12,078 nt of DNA from IMG/VR virus record IMGVR_UViG_2703718672_000013; one strand, written 5' to 3'. Every line of letters begins with the position of its first letter. Position 1 is the stretch's first letter. Of the stretch, positions 3,449-11,994 are shown piece after piece. Under the pieces are notes generated by a model. The model was not told the DNA's origin and ran no database searches. It saw nothing but the letters and a program-made list of their open reading frames with translations. This DNA is from a virus (lineage: Duplodnaviria > Heunggongvirae > Uroviricota > Caudoviricetes). Both the position numbers and the translations under genes were made by a program.

Positions 3449-3634
3449 ATGCCAAACAAACCATGCCCTGCCTGTAACGCTCTTTCTGGCTTTTTAGAGA
3501 AGGGCGGTTATTACATTTTTAACTGTCCAGAACATGTTGAATTTCATATATCAAAACTTGACAGTATCATTACAAAGCCAAATCAGTATCAGTCTGATTT
3601 ACTGAATAAAGAGTTAAACGCCGCCCGAGATTAA
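3449..3634 (+). CDS. Small hypothetical protein (61 aa) with zinc-ribbon-like cysteines (C-P-A-C ... N-C-P-E-H), encoded antisense to the leftward operon
   Basis: ATG at 3449 preceded by GGAGGA (3439-3444) at 5-nt spacing; the track ORF 3377..3634 contains this start internally. No homolog recognised. Confidence 0.35.
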   Translation: MPNKPCPACNALSGFLEKGGYYIFNCPEHVEFHISKLDSIITKPNQYQSDLLNKELNAARD

Positions 3635-3671
3635 GGGCGTAGTGGCCCATTAAAAATATTGCAAAGACCAA

Positions 3672-4210
3672 CTATTGTTGAACTGGATTAAACCAGTAAT
3701 TCTCTATTGCTCTTATTGTTACCATCGGATGATTGCCGGGGGTTATTTTAAGTTCGGGAGGAAAAGGCTCTCCATCAGCAGCCATCATTGAGTATGTGAA
3801 ATCCGCCGACGCAGTCCCTTTCATGATAATTCCGAATTTTTCAAGTAATGAGAGCAGTTCCGGTAATCCTGTGTCATCTGAATAACTTTCCTCATAGAAA
3901 GAAGCGATTGCCGCAGGAGATGACAGTTCTCGCTCTGCAATTTTTTTGTAGTTTTCCAGAATTCTTTTTTTGAATACTTTTCCTCGACATGAAAACCCAT
4001 CACCGAGGCAATCCGCTTTGCAGTTTCTTCAGTATTCTGGTTGTTTGTTACCGAAACAGAGTACAATCCGGTAAACGCATCGCGCACATTACGAGCCATA
4101 TTATCAATGTATTTCTTCGTTGCAGATTCTAATTCAACTTCGTTCAGACGTTGGTGAAGTGCATGTGCTGCAATTTCCTGGATTTCTTTTAGTAAATCTT
4201 TAAATTCCAT
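3672..4210 (-). pseudogene. Hypothetical leftward-operon gene disrupted by a frameshift in an A7 homopolymer (T-run 3965-3971 on plus strand); N-terminal about 80 codons in one frame, about 95 further codons in the -1 frame
   Basis: Track ORF 3821..4210 turns low-complexity after ...MGFHVEEKYS; the -1 frame from the A-run gives a protein-like continuation (KKRILENYKKIAERELSSPAAIASFYEESYSDDTGLPELLSLLEKFGII...NYWFNPVQQ) to a TAG at 3672. ATG at 4210 follows the upstream gene stop by 12 nt. Confidence 0.5.
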
Positions 4211-4221
4211 CTTTAACTCCG

Positions 4222-4350
4222 TTAGTCGTTAGATTTTGCCGAACTGGAAAGCGCCTGTTTAAACTCACTGAAGCTGAGAGCTTCCTCGCCTTCGGCAAGG
4301 CCTTCGAAGTATTCTTCGTAAGCCTTTTCCATGATTGTGTCGAAATCCAT
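4222..4350 (-). CDS. YdfB/YdaG-like small protein (42 aa)
   Basis: Own translation: MDFDTIMEKAYEEYFEGLAEGEEALSFSEFKQALSSSAKSND; ATG at 4350 follows the upstream TGA by one base; size and position match ydfB (Qin) / ydaG (Rac). Below the track's length cutoff. Confidence 0.6.
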   Translation of the reverse strand: MDFDTIMEKAYEEYFEGLAEGEEALSFSEFKQALSSSAKSND

Positions 4351-4693: not shown

Positions 4694-4733
4694 ACAATTA
4701 AAAACTGTTTTTGTGTCAACAGTTTTTAATTGT
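4694..4733. promoter_or_regulatory. OL-like operator: perfect 16-bp inverted repeat (ACAATTAAAAACTGTT / AACAGTTTTTAATTGT) with 8-bp spacer; a consensus TTGACA on the minus strand lies in the spacer
   Basis: Palindrome read directly in the sequence; shares the AAAAACTGT...ACAGTTTTT core with the palindrome at 5730-5766; lies between the repressor-TA operon terminator and the leftward operon. Confidence 0.6.
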
Positions 4734-4784: not shown

Positions 4785-5072
4785 TCAGATAGAGAAGGGA
4801 AATTGTCGCCGAGAATGTGTCACGCTTACAATCTCAATGCTTGAAGCAGCTACTCTGTACAGGATTATGTAGTTAGGGTGGGTCACGATCTCTCTCAATC
4901 CAGAAACCCGTTCGCTTGGTGGATATAAGTACGGATGCTCAGATAGAGGTAATACCGATGTTTCAATGCGTATTTTTAGTCTACGTGCTGCCGGTGGGTT
5001 CTCCTTGGCGATGTAAGTTATGATCTGGCGCAAATCATCGCGAGCAGACGGTAGCCATAAAATGGGTAACAT
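4785..5072 (-). CDS. parE: ParE/RelE-superfamily type II toxin (95 aa)
   Basis: ParE-like pattern W..SA..DL..I..YIA..NP.AA......E....L...P..G........LRE......YI.LYRV....IEIV.V.H.RR; start overlaps the upstream stop (TAATG). Confidence 0.78.
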   Translation of the reverse strand: MLPILWLPSARDDLRQIITYIAKENPPAARRLKIRIETSVLPLSEHPYLYPPSERVSGLREIVTHPNYIILYRVAASSIEIVSVTHSRRQFPFSI

Positions 5073-5263
5073 TACTCGCTCTTGTTAGTTACAGCAATTT
5101 GAGCAATAAGATTTTCCATTTCAGCCATTACCTCGTCATGTGGAATTGCGGGGCGAGTGTCTGCAAGGCTTGACGTTACTTTAGTGCGCAACCATTCGTT
5201 GTAACTGTTTTCTTGTTCGGTAGTTTCGAATTCTGAAACTATCGGAGAAAGGGCTGTACCCAT
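5072..5263 (-). CDS. Small antitoxin (63 aa), PaaA-like partner of the ParE-family toxin
   Basis: GAGGAG Shine-Dalgarno 7 nt upstream of ATG at 5263; 1-nt stop/start overlap with the toxin; 63 aa, acidic; resembles my recollection of PaaA2 from E. coli O157 three-component paaR-paaA-parE systems. Confidence 0.68.
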   Translation of the reverse strand: MGTALSPIVSEFETTEQENSYNEWLRTKVTSSLADTRPAIPHDEVMAEMENLIAQIAVTNKSE

Positions 5264-11234: not shown

Positions 11235-11781
11235 GCGTTCTCCCCATGAGCATTAAAGGATGCTTAAGATATGCTATGTCACTGATAAAAAATTTGTTGT
11301 GTGTGTTTAGTTATTTTATCTACCTCCATTATGATTTAAGACTGATATATGTTATCAGCAAAGGTACATCGTTATTATTTTACCTGTCAATACATTTGAT
11401 ATTGATTATCGTTTACATCGCTTGCTTAGGAAATTGAAGGCAGGTAACTATCATGTCAATGAACTAACCCACAGTCTAACGTACTTCTTTCCCCAATCAC
11501 CAACAACCAAATTCCTGTTATCACCACTGGGATTTTGGCGCAACTTCATGGTGCAGAGGTAAATAGCATCAAGCAAAATCTCTTTTTCCGTTGTTGTCCT
11601 TATGGGACGTCTGTCTTTCTGACCGATTTCATATTGGCGAGGTAATGGGAAGTTAAGTAGAATAGCTGCGGGTGCTTGAGGCTATCTGCCTCGGGCATGA
11701 ACACCAACGGCAGATAGAGAAAAGCCCCAGTTAACATTACGCGTCCTGCAAGACGCCTAACATTAATCTGAGGCTCAATCT

Positions 11782-11994
11782 ATGAACGGCAAATCTAGGT
11801 TAGCCTCTTACGTGCCGAAAGGCAAGGAGAAGCAGGCTATGAAGCAGCAAAAGGCGATGTTAATCGCCCTGATCGTCATCTGTTTAACCGTCATAGTGAC
11901 GGCACTGGTAACGAGGAAAGACCTCTGCGAGGTACGAGTCCGAACCGGCCAGACGGAGGTCGCTGTCTTCACAGCTTACGAACCTGAGGAGTAA
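11782..11994 (+). CDS. mok-like overlapping reading frame of a hok/sok-type type I toxin locus
   Basis: 70-aa ORF that contains the hok-like frame, the arrangement of mok/hok; GAGG upstream of ATG 11782. Confidence 0.5.
   Translation: MNGKSRLASYVPKGKEKQAMKQQKAMLIALIVICLTVIVTALVTRKDLCEVRVRTGQTEVAVFTAYEPEE
11839..11994 (+). CDS. hok: Hok/Gef-family type I toxin (51 aa membrane peptide)
   Basis: MKQQKAMLIALIVICLTVIVTALVTRKDLCEVRVRTGQTEVAVFTAYEPEE matches the Hok family signature (LTRKSLCEIR...EVAAF.AYE) as I recall it; a 9-bp hairpin lies in the leader (11682-11717). Confidence 0.78.
   Translation: MKQQKAMLIALIVICLTVIVTALVTRKDLCEVRVRTGQTEVAVFTAYEPEE

Follow-up and report, generated by a model that had tools for sequence, protein, structure and literature searches.

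A one-base homopolymer deletion truncates a prophage gene in the dicBF-type operon of Escherichia coli O157:H7 and other E. coli

Within the window, as we call the whole 12,078-nucleotide stretch of tailed-phage DNA that was analysed (IMG/VR record IMGVR_UViG_2703718672_000013), one gene of the leftward operon is divided between two reading frames. The initial annotation placed the junction at a run of seven A residues and offered three readings of it: a sequencing error in the homopolymer, a real inactivating indel, or a -1 ribosomal frameshift site resembling that of dnaX. The question is which of these accounts for the split, and whether the gene in its present form is a broken gene or one that is read across the break to some purpose.

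A lambdoid prophage of the E. coli O157:H7 type makes up the window, which over positions 3600-4300 shows 100% identity to O157:H7 chromosomes; there the prophage adjoins yccA. The features that surround the gene are the following.

5692-5291, minus strand: HTH repressor
5263-5072, minus strand: relB-like antitoxin
5072-4785, minus strand: relE/parE-like toxin
4507-4352, minus strand: DUF1391/ydfA
4350-4222, minus strand: ydfB
4210 onward, minus strand: the frameshifted gene, in the slot between ydfB and dicF
3112-3061, minus strand: DicF RNA (Rfam RF00039, 76.9 bits against a gathering score of 48)
2875-2687, minus strand: dicB, followed by DUF1482, an exonuclease and an integrase

The presence of both DicF and dicB identifies the locus as a dicBF-type operon, in which DicF lies between the frameshifted gene and dicB, about 560 nt after the ancestral stop of the former. 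Several further features of the neighbourhood deserve mention in their own right. The relB/relE-like pair (4785-5263, minus strand) sits between the prophage repressor and ydfA. Just past relE there is a hairpin that resembles a terminator and leads into a T run (4766-4751, minus strand), and the relE-ydfA intergenic region also holds a perfect inverted repeat with a 16-bp stem (ACAATTAAAAACTGTT ... AACAGTTTTTAATTGT; 4694-4733, plus strand), the loop of which has a different homopolymer length in one draft assembly; the repeat and the hairpin may be a terminator or an operator. At the far end of the window a sok antitoxin RNA (11670-11844, plus strand; Rfam RF01794, 105.6 bits) overlaps the start of a 70-codon ORF (11782-11994, plus strand), and the two probably form a hok/sok-type toxin-antitoxin locus within the prophage. 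A convergent annotated ORF of 61 aa (WP_001133046.1; 3449-3634, plus strand) lies just past the point at which the frameshifted gene ended ancestrally; in intact relatives the gene shares 20-44 nt at its 3' end with an 80-aa antisense ORF.

The gene itself is laid out as follows.

3821..4210, minus strand: truncated CDS, from ATG at 4210 to TGA at 3823-3821, 129 codons plus stop; residues 1-90 are native, and the tail of residues 91-129 (39 codons) is out of frame
4028 to 3672, minus strand: open -1 frame, ending in TAG at 3674-3672
3965..3971, minus strand: first A7 run, TCA AAA AAA GAA (S-K-K-E), in phase A_AAA_AAA with frame 0
3941..3947, minus strand: second A7 run, ACA AAA AAA TTG, in phase A_AAA_AAA; the true frameshift site
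3672..3940, minus strand: orphaned C-terminal coding region in the -1 frame, IAERELSS...NPVQQ then TAG, equivalent to intact residues 91-179
3821..3824, minus strand: ATGA, in which the TGA of the truncated ORF overlaps the ATG of a 50-codon ORF (3824-3672) in the ancestral frame

Frame 0 and the -1 frame are both protein-like and overlap by 205 nt; the two A7 runs, the second 24 nt downstream of the first, lie inside the overlap, where neither frame contains a stop. The first run had been described as an A_AAA_AAA heptamer, and its phase is confirmed by the codons given above. Seven-A runs as such are not enriched in the window, where nine are observed against 7.6 expected. The truncated CDS is labelled a hypothetical protein in RefSeq (WP_000394511.1) and carries no disruption flag. 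The product of the 50-codon ORF (P0121, 50 aa) is predicted by some gene callers, and the ATGA arrangement could in principle allow termination and reinitiation to yield a C-terminal fragment.

When the two frames were fused and used as a query, single-ORF homologues of 177-186 aa were recovered at 98-100% coverage, with E values from 8e-98 to 7e-58. The closest of these are P0001 (179 aa, 91% identity), P0002 (179 aa, 82%) and P0003 (180 aa, 77%), and six more from Salmonella or E. coli (177-186 aa) share 61-68% identity. Because single ORFs span 98-100% of the fused query, the downstream -1 frame is to be read as genuine coding sequence; the claim of the initial annotation that both frames are protein-like and that a gene is really split was thus well founded, and the ORFs are open as it described.

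The homologues also fix the position of the break. At the site they read ...KYSKKEFWKTTKKIAEREL..., in the pattern ...KKEFWKTTKK-IAEREL..., with a consensus of ...KYSKKEFWK(T/I)(T/A)K(K/R)IAE.... They match frame 0 of the window through both lysine pairs and the -1 frame directly after the second pair, so the break lies at 3941-3947 and not at 3965-3971. A junction at 3965-3971, as in the initial fused model, was rejected, as the eight residues between the runs follow frame 0 (EFWKTT, not RILENY).

At the DNA level, the closest intact alleles (L002-L004) differ from the window at the break by run length only: they read ACAAAAAAAATTGCAG, with eight A residues at the second run, where the window has ACAAAAAAATTGCAG, with seven. 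Intact alleles L005-L007 read GCAAAAAAAATTGCAG, again with A8 at the second run, and the codons over the A8 tract in the close intact homologues are ACA/GCA AAA AAA ATT. The first run in the closest intact homologues is A7, the same as in the window. At the second site the intact alleles of Salmonella type lack an A run and read GCCAAAAGAATC or GCCAGGGCAATC, and over the wider site GCCAAAAGAATCGCG or GCCAGGGCAATCGCG. Adding one A to the second run of the window yields an ORF of 179 codons that is collinear with those of the intact alleles. The intact alleles also occupy the same operon slot, with DUF1391/ydfA or ydfB upstream and dicB or kilR plus an exonuclease downstream. On comparison with these alleles, the lesion is a one-base deletion, A8 to A7, at 3941-3947. 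Of what had been proposed for the locus, the real indel stands in so far as the frame is broken by a deletion; the position does not, as the homologues and the A8 of the closest intact alleles move the junction from the first run, where the frames had been said to join exactly, to the second. The comparison of orthologues for A7 versus A8, which the initial annotation had recommended, gives an answer that depends on the run and on the relative: the close intact alleles have A8 at the second run but A7 at the first, and in the distant ones the second site lacks an A run altogether.

A homopolymer is an error-prone place in any assembly, and versions of the second run with eight A residues (two draft assemblies) and with six (one assembly, L012, GCA_008122345.1) are known; it might be supposed, therefore, that the organism truly carries A8. 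The distribution of the allele makes this extremely improbable. An 85-nt probe across both runs was matched to complete E. coli genomes, and 384 of the 386 that carry the segment are identical to the window over the whole probe; when the probe was altered to A8 or A6 at the second run, no complete E. coli genome gave a 100% match. One of the two non-identical genomes (E105) has a base substitution outside the runs. The carriers of A7 include O157:H7 (EDL933 and TW14359 among them), O121:H19, O103, O111:H11, and isolates from pigs and fish, and the complete genomes with the identical A7 come from many different accession series. In a collection of 15 billion proteins, the 129-aa product occurs on at least 1000 contigs, as does one near-identical variant, and the exact restored 179-aa product is found on two, from the drafts GCA_000263935.1 (O111:H11 strain CVM9534) and GCA_000178315.1, both of them old assemblies. 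The CVM9534 contig has a second homopolymer discrepancy (A4 versus A5) within the same 3-kb stretch, which suggests that its A8 call is a read error, and a complete O111:H11 genome carries A7. With two A8 drafts on record, length variation or rare reversion is not strictly zero. Given the uniformity of the complete genomes, the lack of an exact A8 or A6 match among them and the A7 of the complete O111:H11 genome, A7 is a genuine and fixed genomic state, and the proposal of a sequencing error is set aside.

The DNA for the C-terminal domain is carried by 412 of 5,426 complete genomes. The frameshifted allele accounts for 386 of these, at 99% identity or more; one genome (strain A19) has an intact 180-aa allele, and the other 25 have a diverged allele, of which the sole one inspected (P15-25) is annotated as intact, with 186 aa. 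The frameshifted set is nearly clonal, and the genomes that were compared base by base differ from the window in the gene by single bases only. In E. coli E105 an IS3-family element (L014, 1426-2639) is inserted in ydfB just upstream of the gene. Two other alleles (P0017, P0018) carry indels of independent origin at the first A run and another (P0016) has several shifts, and on account of these both runs look like recurrent sites of indels or of errors.

The occurrence of A6, A7 and A8 at one place or another, together with the indels at the first run in P0017 and P0018, might bring to mind a contingency switch, in which the length of the A run toggles the full-length protein within populations. 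Such phase variation is as improbable here as an assembly error, since all but two of the 386 complete genomes are exact over both runs and E105 differs outside them. A tract of seven or eight A residues is, moreover, short for a phase-variable switch of high frequency.

What the deletion removed can be described in terms of the layout of the protein better than in terms of its function. A Pfam search returned only noise below the threshold. Matches to PHROGs are confined to the N-terminal part (residues 1-54 to 1-92, depending on the family) and involve five families of unknown function with differing C-termini; a tblastn search against phage records gave a match limited to residues 1-71, and many proteins of 113-214 aa share the N-terminal module only. 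When the C-terminal 89 aa were searched exhaustively with HMMER against 1.84 billion representatives, nothing outside the family was found save four marginal hits with E > 1e-5. The AlphaFold2 model is poor (pLDDT 52, pTM 0.37), and its first two helices alone come to about 75 in pLDDT. Residue 90, at which the deletion falls, is close to where the shared N-terminal module ends, and, as the cut is at the boundary between that module and the family-specific C-terminal domain, the 129-aa product may keep partial function. The evidence supports both the frame-breaking indel and the retention of the N-terminal module in the truncated gene. Apart from the truncation, the module (4210-3941, minus strand; P0019-P0120; MEFKDLP.EIQEIAAHTLRQRL...NMARNVRDAFTGLY) is found in different families of prophage proteins fused to C-terminal regions of at least five unrelated kinds, a clear case of domain mosaicism in the operon slot of the gene.

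If the C-terminal part were still in use, the frame that encodes it should remain intact, and the 89 orphaned codons are indeed stop-free and almost unchanged; a recent deletion explains this equally well. Only one change in the orphaned region is specific to the lineage of the window.

3723..3725, minus strand: codon 163 in the restored numbering, ATG (Met), where nine of nine fetched intact homologues have Arg

The Arg codon is AGG in the three intact homologues compared at the DNA level, so that the change is R163M (AGG to ATG), and synonymous changes number zero. Strain 2014C-3011 keeps the ancestral Pro7, yet already has both A7 and Met163. A comparison of the dN/dS kind has in this frame a single substitution to work with, which is too few events. 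The replacement of an invariant Arg offers thin evidence, which would point toward decay rather than constraint.

The last of the three proposals, ribosomal frameshifting, and its looser variants turn on the signals around the two runs. As the phase of both runs allows a -1 slip, a low and unselected restoration of the frame is possible: the exact ancestral protein would result from a tandem -1 slip at 3941-3947, and one A added by RNA polymerase at either run would likewise restore the frame. The restored product would carry the peptide EFWKTTKKIAER or KKRILENYKKIAER across the junction, and the truncated product would have TTKKLQSENCHLLR in its tail. The heptamer at the second run arose through the deletion itself. 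Between the same flanks the intact alleles have A8 and can do without a shift, and the 'signal' at this run thus comes from the deletion and not from a conserved design. At the first run a GAGG (3985-3982) stands 10 nt upstream, the same spacing as that of the Shine-Dalgarno-like stimulator of dnaX; it amounts to a pair of Glu codons and is missing from L007, L008 and L011, and nothing comparable precedes the second run. In the 80 nt after either run no downstream stimulatory RNA structure is found above shuffled sequence: the minimum free energy is -14.9 kcal/mol after the first run (z = -0.26 against dinucleotide-preserving shuffles) and -16.1 kcal/mol after the second (z = +0.36 against the same kind of shuffles). 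In E. coli the A_AAA_AAA heptamer is reported to shift much less readily than the A_AAA_AAG of dnaX (PMC5009743). The two-frame layout is absent from the diverged homologues (61-91% identity), which are single ORFs with A8 or with no run.

A conserved programmed -1 frameshift of the dnaX type, giving two products in a set ratio, would find in this gene an in-phase heptamer twice over and 205 nt of overlap between two open frames. It is very unlikely in view of relatives that remain single ORFs down to 61% identity, the lack of structure, the weak heptamer, and intact alleles that have A8 between the same flanks and no need of a shift; every point that tells against the leaky allele considered next applies to it too. 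Programmed transcriptional slippage would call for a conserved long A/T run together with an ORF overlap, and in this gene a 7-nt run lies in a layout that is not conserved. The runs used for such slippage are typically of at least 9 nt, or of 8 in some IS elements.

A less demanding proposal is that A7 is a leaky or attenuated allele, in which low-level -1 slippage or transcriptional insertion of an A supplies useful full-length protein, as a 'compensatory' frameshifting that follows an indel. The in-phase runs, a -1 frame open from 4028 to 3672, the GAGG before the first run and an orphaned frame that is still intact are all in keeping with it. So is what is known of slippage in E. coli, where the insertion of single bases during transcription is concentrated in A/T runs and becomes exponentially more frequent the longer the run (PMC5574713), and where unprogrammed suppression of a one-base deletion reached a bulk efficiency of about 4% in one system (PMC10861913). 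However, selection against slippage-prone A/T runs emerges, in a large proportion of bacterial genomes, at about 9 nt (PMC1088944); the layout is not conserved, the GAGG amounts to two Glu codons and is lacking in L007, L008 and L011, the heptamer is a weak shifter with no structure downstream, R163M strikes an invariant residue, and, as the allele set is nearly clonal, the persistence of A7 needs no selection. Taken together these points leave a leaky allele that supplies useful protein unlikely. It is decidedly unlikely that the tandem heptamers give a few percent of product with the C-terminal domain and that prophages of Shiga-toxin-producing E. coli (STEC) keep this low dose, or the altered translation upstream of dicF-dicB, as an advantage.

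The most probable explanation by far is thus an ordinary, fixed frameshift by deletion, A8 to A7, that truncates a prophage protein of about 179 aa, with frame restoration, if it occurs, being incidental. The ancestor would have encoded a protein of about 179 aa composed of an N-terminal helical module common to other phage families and a family-specific C-terminal domain. Replication slippage in the A8 tract (...ACA AAA AAA ATT...) would have lost one A, leaving A7 at 3941-3947. Ribosomes would then read 39 out-of-frame codons and halt at the TGA at 3823-3821, and the 129-aa product would keep the N-terminal module and lose the C-terminal domain, and presumably its function with it. The deletion has become fixed in one nearly clonal prophage module, whose carriers are O157:H7 and other E. 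coli, the majority of them Shiga-toxin-producing. The frame could be restored now and then, by -1 slippage of the ribosome or by an A inserted in transcription, probably as an incidental property of the runs and not as a selected one.

This reading gives an identity to the 129-aa hypothetical protein that RefSeq lists for hundreds of E. coli genomes, mostly Shiga-toxin-producing: it is a frameshift-truncated form of a 179-aa prophage protein. It also illustrates that a 'slippery' heptamer in phase at a frame break is no proof of recoding, as here the heptamer was made by the deletion. The biological consequences are probably small; the gene is cargo in what appears to be a variable slot of a dicBF-type operon. 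What remains is an ordinary one-base homopolymer deletion, fixed in a widespread STEC prophage module, in which incidental restoration at a low level is plausible as a mechanism and shows no sign of selection.

Among the nearest known systems are frameshift mutations in homopolymer tracts that truncate or pseudogenise genes of bacteria and prophages, with which the gene shares the one-base change in an A run, the premature stop, the orphaned frame and the fixation in one lineage. It differs from them in that the cut falls at the boundary between a module and a domain, and in that RefSeq has set no disruption flag. The dnaX gene of E. coli has the heptamer A_AAA_AAG, an upstream Shine-Dalgarno-like element and a downstream stem-loop. 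The window gene resembles it in having a heptamer of lysine codons in X_XXY_YYZ phase and a GAGG 10 nt before the first run; unlike dnaX, its heptamer is A_AAA_AAA, no stem-loop rises above shuffled sequence, and the site is not conserved. The outcome would be opposite as well, since the shift in dnaX shortens the product, whereas a shift in the window gene would lengthen it. With the restoration of frame by transcriptional slippage at runs of 9A or 9T, as described for IS elements and other genes (PMC1088944), the gene has in common a run at which one extra A restores the long ORF; it differs in the length of the run (7 nt, not 8-9 or more) and in a run-plus-overlap layout that is not conserved.

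The last comparison is with the dicBF operon of the Qin prophage of E. coli K-12 (ydfA-ydfB-ydfC-dicF-dicB). In K-12 the operon has no relB/relE-like pair at the corresponding place, and dicA is followed directly by ydfA. The DNA of the K-12 locus matches the window over ydfB only. K-12 YdfC (72 aa) was considered as a relative of the truncated protein and rejected, the translation showing no evident resemblance when judged by eye without alignment. In K-12 it is ydfC that occupies the place between ydfB and dicF, the same slot that is held in the window by the frameshifted gene, and the ydfC-type slot appears to be a variable cargo position.
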